A stretch of DNA of 64,000 nt from Oxalobacteraceae bacterium (GTDB lineage Bacteria; Pseudomonadota; Gammaproteobacteria; Burkholderiales; Burkholderiaceae_D). The stretch covers positions 38,543 through 102,542 of the forward strand of contig OMID01000062.1 of assembly GCA_900299005.1 (NCBI GenBank). Direction: 5' to 3'. The notes beneath the pieces were generated by a model, which saw nothing but the letters and a program-made list of their open reading frames with translations, was not told the origin of the DNA and searched no databases. Of this stretch, positions 5,568-40,341 are shown piece after piece (the first letter of the stretch is position 1; every line of letters starts with the position of its first letter). The position numbers and the translations under genes are program-made.

Positions 5568-5696
5568 GGCAGACGCTGAAAAAATCATGTTAGGGCGAGC
5601 CAGCATCACCGTGGGACGTGGGAGCCCGCCACTTCAAAAGCTTGCCGCTATTTCCCAAAGGAGAAATCTTGCGGTGTTTAATTATCCAGCGATGCC
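5568..5696 (+). mobile_element. MITE-like dispersed repeat, copy B
   Basis: 129 bp; ends GGCAGACGCTG...CAGCGATGCC; 55/65 nt identical to copy E over 5615-5679. Confidence 0.8.
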
Positions 5697-5721
5697 CAAG
5701 CTTATCCAGCGATGCCCAAGC
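5682..5721. repeat. Perfect 20-bp tandem duplication (TTATCCAGCGATGCCCAAGC x2)
   Basis: Read directly; spans the right terminus of repeat copy B. Confidence 0.95.
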
Positions 5722-5845
5722 TTAGCCCTCCAGGGCACTCTTCTCCGCCGGACATTCATCACTGTATAGCCCCAATCGACGCGCATGCTGCAGTGCGCTA
5801 CGTTAAAATGCGGCTTTATGAATCTCAGGCACCTGGTTTCCCTGA

Positions 5846-25575: not shown

Positions 25576-25880
25576 GAAGCAGATCAGACAGTCGCCGGCG
25601 TGCGTGGCACGCGGGAGGAAGGTCCGGACTCCACAGAGCAGGGTGACGGCTAACGGCCGTCCGTCGTGAGGCGAGGAACAGGGCCACAGAGACGAGCGTA
25701 TTCAGTTACGGTGAAACGCGGTAACCTCCACCCGGAGCAATTCCAAATAGGCATGCAATGACGTGGCTCGCCTAGCATGCGGGTAGGAAGCTTGAGCGCC
25801 GGAGTAATTCGGCGCCTAGAGGAATGACTGTCAGGGCCGCGCAAGTGGTCTTACAGAATCCGGCCTATCGATCTGCTTCA
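25576..25880 (+). ncRNA. rnpB: RNase P RNA (bacterial type A)
   Basis: Terminal stem GAAGCAGATC/GATCTGCTTC; GAGGAAGGTCCGGACTCC, AGGGCCACAGA, GGTGAAACGCGGTAACCTCCAC, GGGTAGG, TAGAGGAATGACTG, ACAGAATCCGGCCTAT conserved elements. Confidence 0.97.
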
Positions 25881-25991
25881 CATGCTCTCTTTTTGCTCTG
25901 CCCAGGAGCTGCTGTGTGACTACCCAGCGCGATGAGTGGGTTGCCGGCCTGATGCGTCTTTGCCTGGGGTGCGGCTTGGCGGTGCGGTCTG

Positions 25992-30842: not shown

Positions 30843-32374
30843 TGGCGCTCGCCGTGCTTTTGGCCGCCGACGTCAGCCACTGGCTGCGCAATGTGGCGCC
30901 GTCTGCGCAGCTGTCGCTCGATTCGCGCCGCATTCAGCGGGGCGATGTATTCCTCGCTTGTCCGGGTGACAGCGGAGATGGTCGAGATTACATCTCGCAG
31001 GCGATTGAGGCTGGCGCACGCGTCATCGTGTTCGACACTGCAGATGAATTCGAGTGGAAATCCGAGTGGGAAGTCGAGCATTGCGGTGTGCCAGGGCTGG
31101 CCGCCAGCGTTGGTCGTATTGCCTTCGATTGGTATGGCCAACCGGATAGCGACATGTTCAGTGTGGCTGTCACGGGTACCAATGGCAAGACCTCTTGTAC
31201 CCAATGGCTCGGGCAGGCGCTATCGCGCGAAGGGTGGCCGACCTGTGTCGTTGGCACTCTGGGTGTCGGCCTGTACCGTCATGGTGAGAGCGGTGAATTT
31301 CAGCCGACAGGTTTTACCACGCCCGATGCCGTGCAGCTTGCGCGCCAGCTGGCTGCGATGCGTCACACGGGCGCGAAGGCCCTCGCCATCGAAGCTTCAT
31401 CGATCGGGCTGGCGCAGGGTCGATTGAGTCACCTGCATGTCGATGTCGCCGTGCTGACCAATTTCACGCGTGATCATCTGGATTTTCATGGCGACATGAT
31501 GGCCTATGAGGCTGCCAAGGCCACACTGTTCGACTGGCCCGGACTACAGCACGCCGTGATCAATCTGGATGATCCCATGGGCCTGCGTCGTCTGGCGCAG
31601 CTGCAAGTGCGTCAGCCACGGGTGGAAGTGATCGGGTATACGACCGAGGGTGTAACAGCGAAGGATATCGCTGTGCTTACTGCAGCCGACATTCGCGTCA
31701 GTCAGCATGGTGCGATCTTTCAGCTGTCCTCGCCATTTGGCAGCGGGACGGTGCGCACGCATCTGATTGGCCACTTCAATGTCAGCAATGTACTGGCAGT
31801 GGCGGGCGTGCTTTTCGCGCGTGGCCTAGCCTGGAACAGCGTGATACGTCATCTGGAATCGCTGGTTGCCGTTCCCGGACGCATGCAGCAACTCGGCGGT
31901 CATGACGGACCGCTGGCGGTCATCGATTACGCGCACACGCCGGATGCGCTGGACAAGGCACTGAACACACTGAGGCAAGTCGCCGACGTTCGCCACGGTC
32001 AGCTGTGGTGCGTTTTCGGCTGCGGTGGTGATCGTGATCCCGGCAAACGAGCGCAGATGGGTATAGCAGCGCGGGCAGCTGATCATCTGGTGATCACTAG
32101 CGACAATCCGCGCAGCGAAGAGCCGTCGGCCATCATTGCGCAAATCCTGGCGGGCACCAGCGACATGGACAAAGACCGGGTGCAGGTCATCGAGGATCGC
32201 GCCAATGCCATTCTGTCGGCCATACGCCATGCGGGCAAGCATGATGTGGTGCTCGTGGCGGGCAAAGGCCATGAGGATTACCAGGAAATCAAAGGCAGAA
32301 AGCTTGCGTTCCGCGATGCGGATCATGCTGCCCTGGCACTGGCCACGCGCGCCACGCGCTATGGAGGCCATTGA
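30842..32374 (+). CDS. murE: UDP-MurNAc-L-Ala-D-Glu--DAP ligase
   Basis: VTGTNGKTS, NFTRDHLDFH, DYAHTPDA, CGGDRD, SDNPR (DAP-type), GKGHEDYQ. Confidence 0.96.
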   Translation: MALAVLLAADVSHWLRNVAPSAQLSLDSRRIQRGDVFLACPGDSGDGRDYISQAIEAGARVIVFDTADEFEWKSEWEVEHCGVPGLAASVGRIAFDWYGQPDSDMFSVAVTGTNGKTSCTQWLGQALSREGWPTCVVGTLGVGLYRHGESGEFQPTGFTTPDAVQLARQLAAMRHTGAKALAIEASSIGLAQGRLSHLHVDVAVLTNFTRDHLDFHGDMMAYEAAKATLFDWPGLQHAVINLDDPMGLRRLAQLQVRQPRVEVIGYTTEGVTAKDIAVLTAADIRVSQHGAIFQLSSPFGSGTVRTHLIGHFNVSNVLAVAGVLFARGLAWNSVIRHLESLVAVPGRMQQLGGHDGPLAVIDYAHTPDALDKALNTLRQVADVRHGQLWCVFGCGGDRDPGKRAQMGIAARAADHLVITSDNPRSEEPSAIIAQILAGTSDMDKDRVQVIEDRANAILSAIRHAGKHDVVLVAGKGHEDYQEIKGRKLAFRDADHAALALATRATRYGGH

Positions 32375-34932: not shown

Positions 34933-36447
34933 ATGCAAACCCGAGGAATGAATTTCGCAGGCAAACACGCCCTCGTAGTCGGGCTAGGTGAATCGGGCCT
35001 GGCGATTGCGCACTGGCTCGCGCGTGCTGGCGCTCGCCTGCGCGTCGCTGACACTCGGCCATTTCCCGAGCGACTCACCGGCTTGCGCGAGTTTGTGCCC
35101 ACCGCAGAATTTATCGCCGGTGAATTCACGCCCGCGCTGCTCGACGGTATCGATCTGGTATTGCTGAGCCCCGGACTATCGCCTCACAAAGAGCTCGCCG
35201 ACCTGCTGCCGGCTGCTAACACAAAGCAGATTCCGGTCTGGGGCGAGATCGAACTATTTGCCCAGGCACTGGCAGCGCTGAAGGAAGAACGCGGCTACCA
35301 GCCGAGAATGCTTGGCATTACCGGGACCAATGGCAAGACTACGGTCACCTCTCTGACGGGACATTTATGCCGTGCCGCCGGCTTAGCCGTCCAGGTCGCC
35401 GGCAATATCAGCCCTGCAGCGCTGGATGTGCTGCGCGAGGCGCTGGATCAGGACCGTCTGCCTGATTGCTGGGTGCTCGAACTCTCCAGTTTCCAGTTGT
35501 GGAGCACCCGCACACTGGACCTTGATGCCGCCACTGTGCTCAACATCACCCAAGACCATCTCGATTGGCATGGCGACATCGAGGCCTACGCCAAAGCCAA
35601 GGAACGCATCTTCGGGGCACACACCATTCGCGTGCTCAATCGCGACGATGCGCGCGTGATGAAAATGAAAGGCCAAGAAGCCAACATCATCACCTTTGGC
35701 GCCGACGCGCCAGCCGACGCCAATGACCTTGGCTTGCTTGAAGAACACGGTATGCGCTGGCTGATGCTGGCCGTTGACGCTGGTGAAGCAGGTGAGAAAA
35801 AGCGACGAGGCAAAGCAAAAGTTCCGACAGAGCTGTTCATGAACCGGTTGATGCCTGCCGATGCGCTGAAAATACGTGGCTTGCACAATGCGACCAACGT
35901 ACTTGCCGCCTTAGCTCTGTGCCGCGCGATTGATCTGCCACTTGCGCCCCTGCTGCATGCAGCGCGTCAATATAAGGGCGAGCCGCATCGCGTAGAGAGC
36001 GTAACGACCATAGCCGGTGTTGATTACATCGATGACAGCAAAGGAACGAATGTCGGTGCGACCATTGCGGCCCTCGAAGGTCTGGGGGCATCGGATGCCG
36101 TCAACTCCCCGCGCCTGATTCTGATTGCGGGTGGCGATGGCAAAGGACAGGATTTCGCACCCCTCGTCGGCCCGGTGAAGCGCCATGCAAAAGCCGTGAT
36201 GCTGATCGGGCGTGACGGACCGGCCCTCCGTGAGGCGCTCGCCGCCACCGACGTGCCCCTGACAGATTGCTGGACTCTGGAGCAAGCTGTCGAGCGCGCC
36301 TCCGAGATCGCCAGGGAGGGCGACATCGTGCTGCTCTCACCTGCCTGCGCGAGCTTTGACATGTTTACCAACTATGCGCATCGAGCCGAAGTATTCGTCA
36401 ATGCCGTGCGCGAGATCGGCTTATCGCGCGGGGAGATCAGTGCATGA
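34933..36447 (+). CDS. murD: UDP-MurNAc-L-Ala--D-Glu ligase
   Basis: [49 protein letters not shown]; start 34933 or 34948. Confidence 0.96.
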
Positions 36448-37652
36448 AGCTCACCTTGCCCTGGTTTGCGAGTCACGAATCATCCGCCGCCGATGCGCGC
36501 ATCGGTCAGCGTTCGAGCATGCTTGAGTACGACCAGCCGCTGGTCTGGGTCACTTTGCTACTGCTGTTGGGCGGGATAGTGATGGTCTACTCCGCTTCAA
36601 TCAGCCTGCCCGACTCGCCGAAGTATGCAAATTACAAGAACCATCACTTTTTGCTGCGCCAGACAACGTTTGTCGGAATCGGCCTCCTTGCCGGTTTATT
36701 TGCGTTCCGCGTCAAGATCGAGCAATGGCAAAAAGCAGCGCCCGCCTTGTTCATCCTTTCGCTGGTGCTGATGGTACTGGTGCTCATTCCGGGTGTTGGC
36801 AAGGGCGTCAACGGCGCGCGACGTTGGATAGGATTTGGCGGACTCAATCTTCAGCCATCGGAACTCCTCAAGCTGATGATGGTCCTTTACGCGGCCGACT
36901 TCACAGTACGCAAACAGCAGTACATGCACAAACTCACAAAAGGTTTTCTGCCGATGGCGCTGGCCGTCGGATTTGTCGGCGGCTTGCTTCTTTTACAGCC
37001 TGACCTCGGCGCCTTTGGCGTGATCGTTTGCATTGCGATGGGTATTTTGTTCCTGGGCGGTTTTAATATCGTCTGGTTCAGCGGCATCATAGGCGTGCTG
37101 GGTGCCGTATTCTCGCTCGTGATCTTGCTCTCGCCATGGCGCCGCGAACGTCTGCTGGCCTACATGAACCCTTGGGTGGACGAAAACGTGCTTGGCAAGG
37201 CGTATCAGCTATCACATTCGCTGATCGCTTTCGGCCGCGGTGAACTGTTTGGCGTCGGGCTGGGAGGCAGCGTCGAAAAACTGCATTACCTGCCCGAGGC
37301 ACACACCGACTTTTTGCTGGCCGTGATCGGCGAAGAACTTGGACTGGCAGGCGTGTTGCTTGTGACGATGGCGTTTTACTGGATCGTGCGTCGCGCTTTC
37401 GAGATCGGAAGGCAGTCGATCGCCGTCGATAACGTATTCGCCGGCCTCGTCGCCAAAGGCATCGGTATCTGGATCGGTGTACAGACATTCATCAACATGG
37501 GCGTCAATCTTGGCCTGCTGCCAACCAAAGGCTTGACCTTGCCCCTGATGAGCTACGGTGGATCAGGGGTCGTCATAAATTGCATCGGCCTCGCCATGCT
37601 CCTCCGAATTGATTATGAAAACAGAGTACTCATGCGCGGAGGCCGCGCATGA
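36444..37652 (+). CDS. ftsW: Peptidoglycan glycosyltransferase FtsW
   Basis: [44 protein letters not shown]. Confidence 0.96.
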
Positions 37653-37757
37653 GTACTCTGTTTCGGTGGAGGCTAACTTTGCGCAGCAAAGTTAAGGGAG
37701 CGTTAGCGACTGGCCGTAGCCAAAACGTTTTTTGGATGCGCGGAGGCCGCGCATGAG
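37619..37757. repeat. Junction insertion: 22-bp direct repeat (37632-37653 and 37736-37757) flanking an 82-bp insert, with 21-bp, 9-bp and 6-bp inverted repeats
   Basis: ATGCGCGGAGGCCGCGCATGAG occurs twice, 104 bp apart; perfect stem 37619-37639/37643-37663; TAACTTTGC-GCA-GCAAAGTTA at 37674-37694; CCAAAA-CGTT-TTTTGG at 37720-37735. Confidence 0.92.
37649..37756 (+). CDS. Putative 35-aa coupling mini-[38 protein letters not shown]
   Basis: ATG overlaps the ftsW stop (ATGA) and its TGA overlaps the murG ATG; GGAGG upstream. Translation is not demonstrated. Confidence 0.45.
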
Positions 37758-38826
37758 CCGGCTCCTCATCATGGCGGCAGGAACGGGCGGCCACATCTTT
37801 CCGGGGCTCGCTATTGCCGACACCATGCGTGCTCGTGGCTGGCAGGTGTCCTGGCTTGGCACGACGCGAGGCATGGAAGCAGAGATTGTTCCGCGCCATG
37901 GCCTTGATTTTGATGCGATCAATTTCACCGGCATGCGTGGGAAGGGGCTGCTGCATACGCTCACGGGCACCATCAAACTGGCAGTGAGTTTTTTCAGCTG
38001 TTTGTTGATCCTTCTGCGCCGCAAGCCAGATGTTGTGCTTGGCATGGGGGGTTACGTGACGGTGCCGGGCGGCGTTGTGGCGAAAGTCTGTGGCGTGCCG
38101 CTGGCGCTGGTGAACGCGGATGCCGCCTTGCTGATGTCAAACAAAGCCTTGCTGCCATTTGCCCAAAAAGTACTCTTTGGCTTTTCCGCGCAAGCTGACG
38201 AGCTCGATGCCAAGATGCAGGTAACGGGCAATCCGGTGCGGCGCGAGATACGCGAATTACCGTCGCCTGCCCAGCGTTATGCCACACGGTCAGGAGCGCT
38301 GAATATTCTGGTCATCGGTGGCAGTCTGGGTGCAAAAGCCCTGAATGACACGATACCAGCCGTACTCGCGCTGATTGATCAAGGCGAACGTCCCCGGGTA
38401 GTGCATCAGTCCGGCAAACCGCATATCGCGGCATTGCGTGCGCAGTACGCCCAGCGTCAGGTCGATGCCGAGGTGGTTGACTTCATTGACGACATGGCTG
38501 CCCGTTACGCGTGGGCCGATCTCGTGATCTGCCGTGCCGGTGCAATCACGGTGGCTGAACTGTGTGCCGCCGGCGTGGCCAGCGTGCTGGTGCCCTTCAT
38601 TGCCTCGACCACATCGCATCAGCGCGAGAACGCACGCTGGATGGCCAGCATAGGCGCCGCCATCCATCAGCCGCAAAGCGAGCTCAATAGCGAGGCACTG
38701 GCCTCCTTGATTAAGACGATGACGCGTGAGCGCTGCCTGCACATGGCCGATGCTGCTTACCGGCATGGCAAACGCGATGCCAATGAGGCGATTGCACAAG
38801 TACTGGAAACTTTAGGGCATGCATGA
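37753..38826 (+). CDS. murG: Undecaprenyldiphospho-muramoylpentapeptide beta-N-acetylglucosaminyltransferase
   Basis: MAAGTGGHIFPG, GMGGYV, GNPVR, GGSLGA, RAGAIT, HQRENA; start ATG 37753. Confidence 0.96.
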   Translation: MSRLLIMAAGTGGHIFPGLAIADTMRARGWQVSWLGTTRGMEAEIVPRHGLDFDAINFTGMRGKGLLHTLTGTIKLAVSFFSCLLILLRRKPDVVLGMGGYVTVPGGVVAKVCGVPLALVNADAALLMSNKALLPFAQKVLFGFSAQADELDAKMQVTGNPVRREIRELPSPAQRYATRSGALNILVIGGSLGAKALNDTIPAVLALIDQGERPRVVHQSGKPHIAALRAQYAQRQVDAEVVDFIDDMAARYAWADLVICRAGAITVAELCAAGVASVLVPFIASTTSHQRENARWMASIGAAIHQPQSELNSEALASLIKTMTRERCLHMADAAYRHGKRDANEAIAQVLETLGHA

Positions 38827-38927
38827 AATATCAATTCAAACACCACTACTTTGTGGATCGAACAATGCGGCCGTGCCGAACTCGTCTGCAGGCGATGATG
38901 TCGACGTTGCCAAGGGTGTGTCGCTAA
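38823..38927 (+). CDS. Putative 34-aa mini-[37 protein letters not shown] with a degenerate copy of the murC N-terminus
   Basis: ATG overlaps the murG stop (ATGA); TAA ends 1 nt before the murC ATG; the first 12 codons match Mur[13 protein letters not shown] at 6/12 aa and 23/36 nt. Confidence 0.4.
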
Positions 38928-38928
38928 C

Positions 38929-40341
38929 ATGAAACACAAGGTAAAACACATCCACTTTGTCGGCATCGGCGGTTCCGGCATGAGTGGCATTGCAGAGGTG
39001 CTGCTGAACCTGGGCTATACCGTGTCTGGCTCTGATTTGTCGAGCAATGCAGCCAGCGGCCGATTGGCCGAACTAGGTGCTTGCATTCGTATTGGTCATG
39101 CGCCGGAGCATGTTGAGGGTGCGGACGCCATCGTCACCTCGACCGCCGTGCAGCCAAATAATCCTGAAGTCATCGCAGCGCGTGCGCGTCATATTCCTAT
39201 CGTGCCGCGTGCCGTCATGCTGGCCGAACTGATGCGTTTGAAACGTGGCATTGCGATCGCCGGCACGCATGGCAAGACAACAACGACCAGCCTGGTTGCC
39301 AGCATTCTTGCCGAGGGTGGGCTGGATCCGACCTTCGTGATTGGTGGACGTCTCAATAGCGCGGGTGCCAATGCAAAGCTGGGGACAGGCGAATTTATCG
39401 TGGCCGAGGCAGACGAATCGGACGCTTCTTTCCTGAACCTCTCGCCGGTGATCGAGGTCATTACGAACATCGATGCCGATCACATGGAGACCTACGACCA
39501 TAGCTTTGCGAAGCTCAAGCAAGCCTTCATCGAATTCACGCACAGACTGCCCTTCTATGGCGTGGCGATTCTGTGCATTGATGATCGCAACGTGCGCGAG
39601 ATCATGCCGTTCATTTCAAAGATGGTGATGACGTATGGTTTCCATGAAGAGGCGGACGTGCGCGCGATTGATGCGCGCGCGGTCAATGGTCACATGGAAT
39701 TCACTGTGCTGCAGAAAGACTATGATCCGCTGCCGGTACGCTTGAATCAGCCAGGCATGCACAATGTACAGAATGCCTGTGCGGCCATTGCGATTGCCCG
39801 CGAGCTGGATATCGCGGATGGGCATATACAGAAGGCGCTGAAAAATTTCACTGGCGTTGGTCGCCGATTCACCAAGTACGGGCAACTACCGCTGCCGGGT
39901 GGTGGCAGCTTCAGTCTGGTCGATGACTACGGCCATCATCCGGTAGAGACAGCGGCCACCATTGCAGCAGCGCGAGGTGCTTTTCCGCACAAACGTCTTG
40001 TGCTGGCATTCCAGCCCCATCGTTACACCCGCACGCGGGATCTCTTTGAAGATTTCGTAAAGGTGCTCTCCACCGTGGATGTGCTATTGCTTGCCGATGT
40101 TTATCCAGCAGGTGAGCAACCCATACCGGCAGCTGACGGTCGTTCGCTCGCTCATGCCCTGCGGGTCGTAGGAAAGACGGAACTCGTATTTGTTGAAGAT
40201 ATTGCCGACATGCCCGAGTTGCTGTTGAAGATGGCGCAGGATGGCGATGTGGTCATGACGATGGGTGCAGGTTCGATTGCCAACGTGCCCTCGGCCCTGC
40301 AGCAACTGACCGCCGGCGATGCTCGCAAGGAGACTGCATGA
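38929..40341 (+). CDS. murC: UDP-N-acetylmuramate--L-alanine ligase
   Basis: [44 protein letters not shown]. Confidence 0.97.

Follow-up and report, generated by a model that had tools for sequence, protein, structure and literature searches.

Introduction

Repetitive extragenic palindromic (REP), BIME and REPIN elements, which are mobilized by RAYT Y1 transposases, are short, structured, GC-rich hairpins with GNA-type loops that stand just downstream of genes in operons, singly or in arrays, and that are conserved across related species. Miniature inverted-repeat transposable elements (MITEs; ERIC/IRU, Correia/NEMIS and RUP) are small, non-autonomous palindromic insertions, co-transcribed with their flanking genes and orientation-dependent, and Rickettsia palindromic elements (RPE) are tolerated inside a gene by staying in frame. 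Quasi-palindrome template switching and tandem inversion duplication produce a direct–inverted–direct order of local sequence, and ATGA stop/start overlaps such as those of trpE–trpD and trpB–trpA couple reinitiation to termination. Here, we analyzed a 64,000-nucleotide stretch of DNA from an Oxalobacteraceae bacterium (contig OMID01000062.1; "the window" below, in whose coordinates positions are given), in which a structured element is inserted at the ATGA overlap of the cell-division and cell-wall genes ftsW and murG. We consider it probable that this element is one unit of a structured repeat dispersed in Burkholderiales, that it bears an insertion scar of the order T–T′–core–T (where T is target sequence and T′ an inverted copy of its beginning), and that a small open reading frame (mini-ORF) has been kept at ftsW–murG to relay translation across it. 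We refer to the family as R1, after the covariance model defined in this analysis from an alignment of 28 members.

R1 has the structural and positional traits listed above for REP-type elements and, as a possible tag, carries G-N-A-G in both strands of its closing stem P1 (GTAG in the 3′ strand in the window), with a variable N and an internal position of the motif. Unlike these elements, its core is a branched three-way junction of about 65 nt with two different hairpins rather than a single hairpin or doublet of 20–40 nt, and we know of no REP that has a long, variable target duplication together with an inverted copy of the target. The likeness to MITEs includes a P1 stem (TTTCGG...CCAAAA) that resembles a terminal inverted repeat; MITEs, however, have a fixed short target duplication (for example TA), whereas that of R1 spans about 8–74 nt, and their terminal inverted repeats are those of a parent insertion sequence, whereas the outer "inverted repeat" of R1 derives from the target itself, and R1 has no known parent. 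As with RPE, the insertion at ftsW–murG has one frame that stays open, but the R1 element stands between two genes and is bridged by an ORF of its own instead of lying inside one gene. The T–T′–T order, a first axis on a native palindrome or stop codon and arms that are perfectly Watson–Crick paired, as templated correction predicts, recall quasi-palindrome template switching, whose classic events are purely local; R1 differs in always having a foreign conserved core at the second junction and an inverted piece of 10–22 nt. The native ftsW/murG ATGA, with a Shine–Dalgarno (SD) sequence inside ftsW and both in a hairpin, is laid out like the trp overlaps, as is each joint of the element; what sets it apart is a repeat-made, non-functional mini-cistron as an intermediate link, two to four such links being apparently chained in arrays. 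A resemblance by eye of GGCTAAC...GTTAAGG to the R boxes of integron attC sites was rejected: hairpin A of R1 measures only 21–27 nt, against 57–141 nt for the imperfect palindrome of attC, there are no L boxes and the copies lie in conserved operons, not in cassette arrays. R1 acts like an operon-internal palindromic repeat of the REP/ERIC/MITE type yet fails the defining tests of REP, MITE and Rfam; what is unusual about it is the target-derived inverted copy with its long duplication and, at a coupled junction of essential genes, a relay mini-ORF that appears to be under selection.

Results

A structured core separates two copies of the ftsW–murG coupling site

The end of ftsW, the SD sequence GGAGG and the ATGA stop/start overlap are contained in a 22-mer, ATGCGCGGAGGCCGCGCATGAG, which contains the closing codons of ftsW (M R G G R A) and is present in two copies (J1 and J2) that are 100% identical and 104 bp apart, where shuffled sequences lead one to expect 0. 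GGAGG stands 7 nt upstream of each ATG; the ATGA of J1 (37649–37652) now opens the mini-ORF, and J2 holds the SD sequence, hairpin and ATGA overlap (37753–37756) of murG. The preliminary description of this locus had set the duplicated coupling site at these 22 bp: the duplication itself stands, but the duplicated segment is about 36 nt long, starting at AAAAC, with a 5′ part that has decayed in the window and is intact in three relatives (L029, L072 and L078) as AAAA[CT]AGAGTG..ATGCGCGG. At ftsW–murG, T consists of AAAACAGAGTACTC followed by the 22-nt junction, so that the window reads T (37619–37653), T′ (37654–37663), core and second T.

The final ftsW codons, which lie in the C-terminus IDYENRxLMRGGRx conserved among PF01098 homologues, form the left arm of a long hairpin, H1, within T. 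The two 21-nt arms of H1 (37619–37639 and 37643–37663) are 100% complementary, and the last 10 nt of the right arm are T′, a new sequence that pairs with ftsW coding sequence. Folded as RNA, H1 reaches −37.9 kcal/mol (z = −10.4). The native junction already has a palindrome of 8–11 bp around the SD sequence (the empty-allele junction folds at −24.8 kcal/mol, z = −3.7), and T′ adjoins this palindrome and extends it to the perfect 21-bp stem with a 3-nt loop that had been described at the locus. Both GGAGG motifs lie within hairpins, as had also been observed, and a scan of 37300–39100 found no promoter-like or terminator-like sites around the insert.

Between T′ and the second T, the core is predicted to fold into a three-way junction. 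P1 (consensus TTT.GG[TC]...GGC / GCC...[GA]CC.AAA, with the symmetric G-N-A-G internal loop) closes a sequence-conserved hairpin A, TAACTTTGC-GCA-GCAAAGTTA, with a GCA triloop (37674–37694 in the window), and a hairpin B (about 37696–37711) that is variable, GC-rich and covarying, with a GNA-type loop. The window copy has P1, hairpin A with its GCA loop and hairpin B, and RNAfold of this copy alone returns the same fold. In the alignment of the 28 members, pairing accounts for 90% of cells and both sides have changed in 12 pairs, the covarying pairs lying in P1 and hairpin B. Shuffling never reached the observed level of covariation (0/500), and all slid controls were far lower. In hairpin A, the P0115 allele, which was found by protein and not by the 19-mer described below, carries a compensatory change from U-A to C-G (TTC..GAA). 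G·T pairs outnumber A·C pairs (46 vs 20), which suggests that the sense strand is the folded strand.

The core belongs to a family dispersed in Burkholderiales

The earlier impression that the core recurs in other Burkholderiales proved correct: the 19-mer AACTTTGCGCAGCAAAGTT occurs at 94 loci in GTDB species genomes, compared with about 4 expected from the size of the collection, and about 60 of these loci belong to Burkholderiales, cultured isolates included, with about 65 nt around the 19-mer in common. Carriers within Comamonadaceae include Curvibacter, Hylemonella, Hydrogenophaga, Polaromonas, Roseateles/Pelomonas, Paucibacter and Acidovorax; other Burkholderiales carriers are Noviherbaspirillum, Paucimonas, Cupriavidus, Pigmentiphaga, Imbroritus, Thiobacillus and Sulfuritalea. 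The R1 search, in which copy counts come from 8-kb blocks around matches, gave 118 matches at E ≤ 0.001, about 80 of them near-full-length in Burkholderiales loci and the others restricted to hairpin A; several of the near-full-length copies stand in local arrays. The window contains a single copy (cmsearch 79.2 bits, E = 2e-22). The next-best match in the window (30852–30910, minus strand) is weak (15 bits, E = 0.07), has a GCGCAGC loop and is probably a chance match or a decayed relic.

Searches for an existing name returned nothing. At the gathering threshold, the Rfam scan of the whole window gave RNase P only (bacterial RNase P RNA class A at 25576–25883, 243 bits) and no family for the element, and an Rfam E-value scan of 37500–37900 gave only chance-level miRNA/snoRNA matches at E ≤ 10, far below gathering. 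The family consensus had no match among PLSDB plasmids, literature searches by sequence fragments and keywords found no description of the R1 family, and no Burkholderiales entries were found in the GTAG/CGTC REP survey or in the RepRanger paper.

Outside Burkholderiales, an identical AACTTTGCGCAGCAAAGTT hairpin occurs in metagenome-assembled genomes (MAGs) of Xanthomonadales (Rhodanobacteraceae and bins labelled "Gammaproteobacteria"), where it is part of dense REP/BIME-like arrays of GCGCAGC-loop hairpins (GGGGCCCGG...TTTTGGGG) that are otherwise unlike the Burkholderiales element (loci L036, L040–L043, L046, L064, L065, L071, L081, L086, L099, L105, L108 and L111).

The insertion scar is built from target sequence

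The order seen in the window, with T followed by T′, the core and T again, recurs across the family. A co-directional stop codon lies 9–40 nt upstream of the core in 46/56 callable cases (9 nt for ftsW in the window), and T, about 8–74 nt in length and present on both sides of the core, usually consists of the final codons of the upstream gene with its stop codon, and at some sites takes in the beginning of the gene that follows. Direct repeats of 16–74 nt flank the core, the second T beginning where the AAAA of the core ends. T′, the 10–22 nt directly before the core, is the reverse complement of the beginning of T; such a reverse complement (≥10/12) was found within 110 nt upstream at 22 of the 39 non-redundant sites, compared with 2.5% in cross-site controls. 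Outward extension of P1 into the downstream T is modestly enriched (mean of 2.5 pairs vs 0.8), and the robust pairing is that of T′ with the upstream T.

Alleles of livH–livM, an unrelated site, bear on when T′ is made. Empty alleles at this site (Hydrogenophaga, a lake lineage and Cupriavidus) have a spacer of 10–28 nt and no hairpin after the stop codon, and filled alleles read T(24)–T′(22)–core–decayed T; because the empty alleles lack a hairpin, T′ arises with the insertion or immediately after it. For the same reason we rejected a pre-existing target hairpin as the origin of T–T′, the empty ftsW–murG allele likewise having only the short native palindrome. At ftsW–murG, the 10-nt T′ is perfectly Watson–Crick paired with the lineage's own Asn-Arg-Val codons in 12/15 filled loci despite codon variation (Arg AGA/CGC/AGG and all four bases at the third position of Val), which fits the templated origin first suggested for the 10-nt palindrome extension. 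Such exact tracking of synonymous ftsW changes, with almost no G·T, would be better explained by templated homogenization of the arms in the DNA than by slow compensatory selection acting on RNA.

Two further sites show variants of this plan. In Acidovorax sp. LjRoot129, livH–livM (L140, 1327–1480) carries an element with another core in the same T–T′–core–T arrangement and with a 41-codon ORF that opens on an ATGA at the stop of livH and closes on the duplicated stop codon, which hints at a wider superfamily and a second relay. At a recurrent site (L050, L052, L068 and L121; Pelomonas, Ramlibacter, Polaromonas and others), the duplicated target of 54–68 nt contains a complete 17-codon ORF, MHVQKALMEYLLLGR[LV]G, so that this small ORF is present in two copies.

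The mini-ORF is kept open from ftsW to murG

The ORF of 35 aa that had been proposed to bridge the ftsW stop and the murG ATG was found as described (Table 1), and its frame is conserved. From ATGA to ATGA it is open in 14 distinct filled ftsW–murG alleles, in which it has 34, 35, 36, 40 or 44 codons, and the unit lengths (101, 104, 107, 119 and 131 nt) are all 2 mod 3. About 5 independent indels separate these alleles and all are in frame, for which we obtain roughly p = 0.004 in the absence of constraint; the ends of the mini-ORF vary freely and contain no stop codon. One of the three frames of the core is open, the other two stopping at the TAA in GCTAAC or GTTAAG, and the ATG overlapping the ftsW stop is in this open frame. 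Every joint has a stop/start overlap with the SD sequence inside the upstream ORF, and this is the same in the 14 distinct alleles. In-frame conservation of this kind is what a relay of ribosomes would predict, and, on comparative grounds, such a relay of translation appears well supported. Given start sites buried in hairpins and no promoter-like site, we infer that translation of murG depends on ribosomes arriving from ftsW and relayed by the mini-ORF.

The same comparison limits the relay to this site. It had been asked whether other copies also sit at ATGA overlaps, with duplicated junctions and open frames; the duplication holds for the family, but the ATGA site and the bridging frame do not hold in general. 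Other family sites follow an ordinary stop codon by 9–40 nt, and there the open frame of the core mostly lacks a start codon or soon runs into a stop. The relay seems to be a locally selected solution at a coupled junction rather than a property of the family.

Table 1 Positions of the ftsW–murG insertion, its parts and the adjoining genes and junction in the window
Feature	Positions	Strand	Description
ftsW	36444..37652	+	402 aa; from the ORF list and PF01098 homologues
Hairpin H1	37619..37663	+	Perfect 21-bp palindrome, loop AGG
Junction copy 1 (J1)	37632..37653	+	Exact 22-nt direct repeat
Bridging mini-ORF	37649..37756	+	35 codons; ATG overlaps the ftsW TGA, TGA overlaps the murG ATG at 37753
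R1 core	37661..37725	+	Closing stem P1, hairpin A, hairpin B
Second copy of target T	37722..37757	+	AAAAC...ATGCGCGGAGGCCGCGCATGAG; its 3′ 22 nt are J2 (37736–37757)
murG	37753..38826	+	357 aa, intact; 357-aa product of relatives has PF03033/PF04101
murG–murC insert	38823..38931	+	Duplicated murC start, diverged, and about 70 nt more

Filled and empty ftsW–murG alleles coexist among close relatives

Relatives whose FtsW proteins are 93–94% identical differ in allele state. The plain ATGA overlap (empty allele) is found in L008–L017, L022, L025, L027 and L122–L131, in all contigs with the FtsW protein P0007 and in the more distant P0083 and P0034 lineages. The filled allele, present in at least 15 lineages, is found in the lineage of the window, in the P0024 population, in L133 and in 13 GTDB species; in the P0115 lineage it has 27 extra nucleotides. 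Contigs encoding the same P0024 protein include both filled (+104 bp) and empty ones. Within this population, ftsW differs by 3–13 single-nucleotide polymorphisms, and the consistent differences between filled and empty alleles are at exactly ftsW nt 1176, 1185 and 1188, all three synonymous and in the hairpin arm, from which it follows that the empty alleles are not recent excisions of the filled one. The two states are old allele classes that recombine into different backgrounds, and the insertion at ftsW–murG is ancient and polymorphic rather than recent. In one filled metagenome contig (L007, 1978–2100), the ftsW stop TGA within the long hairpin has become TTA, so that the ftsW frame ends at GGCTAA of the core, FtsW gains 8 aa up to the core TAA and the start of the mini-ORF is lost.

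The unit occurs in short tandem arrays

An FtsW protein identical to that of the window is encoded on 12 contigs from several sources. The reservation that no sequence might span the structure no longer applies, as the whole single-unit arrangement is spanned in the independent assemblies L002 and L003 and in the NCBI MAG contig L004, which come from different assemblers and samples, and the ftsW–murG structure is also spanned in genomes of 13 other species. The number of units varies. Assembly L001 has two tandem 104-bp units, L045 likewise carries two units, and among Logan unitigs on the window the repeat unit has about 3–4 times the depth of the flanks in runs X1 (95 vs about 33), X2 (36 vs about 10.5) and X6 (53–86 vs 13–17), and about the same depth as the flanks in X3 and X5. 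There are, in addition, short contigs in which the end of one unit runs straight into the beginning of another. Natural populations carry about 1 to 4 tandem units, and, given the raised unit depth and these junction contigs, the single unit of the window may be the result of an assembler collapsing a short tandem array. Among JGI metagenome contigs, the unit-to-unit junction had 0 matches and a shared 41-mer had 1. Logan contigs L005 and L006 break inside the palindrome, as de Bruijn assemblers do at inverted repeats.

In a metatranscriptome (run X18), the sole contig on 36400–39000 is a 134-nt piece of the repeat unit across the unit-to-unit junction (window 37632–37735). It could represent a stable structured RNA fragment, a higher copy number or DNA carry-over.

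Discussion

A model of insertion, relay and spread

We propose that the target of the insertion was the ftsW/murG ATGA overlap, and that because of this the whole coupling site (the end of ftsW, the SD sequence, the hairpin and ATGA) was duplicated and both genes were left intact. Ribosomes that end ftsW would re-initiate on the 35-codon ORF, translate through the element and thereby melt it, terminate at the second ATGA and re-initiate on murG. Coupling would in this way be relayed rather than broken, selection would keep the frame open in lineages that retain the element, and in tandem arrays several relay links would be chained. Owing to its flanking direct repeats, the unit expands into short tandem arrays and could in principle be lost by recombination between them. 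At ftsW–murG the element is apparently harmless.

The ends of the parts offer clues to how the element spreads. The TTT at the end of T′ matches the 5′ end of P1, the AAA(A) at the beginning of T matches its 3′ end, and the first axis falls on a stop codon or native palindrome. At the end of T, a 3′ end that is nascent or has been nicked might fold back and copy the start of T, then switch at the TTT/AAA microhomology to a donor core, return at AAAA and recopy T; T and T′ would be homogenized by intrastrand templated repair. Our best guess at the route is that template switching of this kind, by fold-back or in series, is primed where A-rich or T-rich sequence shares microhomology with the ends of P1; a nicking enzyme acting near the core may take part, and an HUH/RAYT-like enzyme is a candidate in view of the G-N-A-G motifs. 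We put forward more tentatively, and with less than even confidence, that R1 represents a class of mobile DNA that moves without a classical transposase cut, by fold-back and template switching or with a nicking enzyme after stop codons, that takes its outer stem from the target, duplicates tens of nucleotides of it and forms a tunable chain of 1–4 links. Were this true, R1 would be unique in its ability to insert at overlapping, coupled junctions within essential operons and cause no polarity; a relay ORF would be kept open by the host, and a "coupling chain" of 1–4 links could tune the FtsW:MurG ratio among strains.

Several observations weigh against parts of this account. The relay rests on conservation of the frame, and orthologous copies share ancestry. 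L007 has lost both the ftsW stop and the start of the mini-ORF, so that either the relay is dispensable there or the contig contains a sequencing error. At sites elsewhere, including a GTGA-type overlap (L118), the open frame goes unused, and the element by itself guarantees no relay. No enzyme or donor intermediate has been identified, and the strong conservation of hairpin A suggests a function or binding partner that our explanation leaves unnamed.

Alternative explanations

The explanation that competes most seriously, although we think it on balance unlikely, is that the core is first of all a cis-acting RNA module selected by the host (an mRNA 3′-end protector, a processing site or a translation brake), and only secondarily selfish DNA, that stands after stop codons and that at ftsW–murG tunes the FtsW:MurG ratio, the mini-ORF being merely the price of coupling. 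Hairpin A and P1 keep their sequence from one genus to another while the genes beside them are saturated at synonymous sites, among orthologues hairpin B is specific to the site, implying old and vertically kept copies, the orientation is strongly biased with transcription, the position is right after stop codons, G·U pairs are tolerated in P1, and the only X18 contig from 36400–39000 is the repeat unit. In Escherichia coli, REP hairpins that follow a stop codon within about 15 nt reportedly reduce upstream translation. Target duplications, tandem arrays, presence/absence polymorphism and occurrence at unrelated sites are, however, hallmarks of a dispersing sequence, many close relatives do well with the empty allele, and the X18 contig may owe its presence to copy number or to DNA carried over. 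Selection by the host for such an RNA and our preferred reading of a dispersed repeat with a relay at ftsW–murG are not mutually exclusive.

Other explanations fare far worse. That the mini-ORF encodes a functional small protein might be argued from its conservation, from the SD-like GGAGG upstream and from a conserved peptide, RLTLRSKVK, but this peptide coincides exactly with the structurally conserved nucleotides and occurs in the same frame at sites that have no start codon, and the product has N- and C-terminal parts of freely varying sequence and length. Since RLTLRSKVK mirrors conserved nucleotides and appears in frame even where there is no start, the peptide itself is unlikely to matter, and we regard a functional small protein as very improbable. 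Still more improbable is a one-off local template switch or tandem duplication with filler, in which there would be no family and the mini-ORF would be an accident. The first 10 nt of the insert are indeed the exact reverse complement of the preceding ftsW codons beside a native palindrome, as fold-back synthesis would give, but the other 65 nt match the covariance model at 79 bits, the same core is found at many unrelated sites and genera, and ftsW–murG is filled in at least 15 lineages with the frame always kept. The preliminary description had left a small palindromic element and a template-switch event side by side, and of these the inserted family element survives: a one-off local rearrangement is refuted by the loci of the 19-mer and the R1 matches elsewhere, and a simple tandem duplication of local sequence was rejected on the grounds that, beyond T and T′, the insert is unlike the 3′ end of ftsW or the 5′ end of murG. 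An assembly artefact (a fold-back chimera or a spurious de Bruijn repeat loop) would account for the breaks of L005 and L006 within the palindrome and for the varying number of units among assemblies; against it, the structure is spanned in independent assemblies and in the genomes of 13 other species, and the differences among the sequences of these species are compensatory. The uncertainty is confined to the number of tandem units, and we regard an artefact as next to impossible.

Implications

The locus shows that a repeat can be tolerated even in the closest sort of gene junction, here a 4-nt overlap in the essential dcw operon, the long duplication keeping the genes whole and an in-phase mini-cistron being potentially able to pass ribosomes. 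It also provides unusually clean comparative evidence for selected translation through a non-coding insert, in that the frame is apparently kept through at least 5 indels while the coding arm co-varies with the non-coding arm, and its scar points to a possible insertion process unlike that of standard transposases. For annotation, the 104-bp tandem units collapse in short-read assemblies, and gene callers leave an "intergenic" gap of 100–200 bp in the place of a coupled chain of mini-ORFs.

The neighbouring murG–murC junction and a further repeat in the window

The next junction downstream carries a second, analogous insert. At murG–murC, the duplicated segment measures about 37 nt and takes in the ATGA overlap with the first 12 codons of murC; its first copy has diverged in the window. 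The two copies are separated by about 70 nt that contain GAA-loop hairpins. An ORF of 34 codons (38823–38927) begins at the murG stop and finishes 1 nt short of the murC ATG. This insert was considered as a member of R1 and rejected, as it gives no R1 match. Relatives have 0, 1 or 2 units at this junction, and the empty alleles (L023 and L027) are chimeras of the two T copies, which indicates that murG–murC has been emptied by deletion through recombination between the direct repeats. Elsewhere in the window, 5682–5724 holds an exact 20-bp tandem duplication, TTATCCAGCGATGCCCAAGC, in 2.2 copies.

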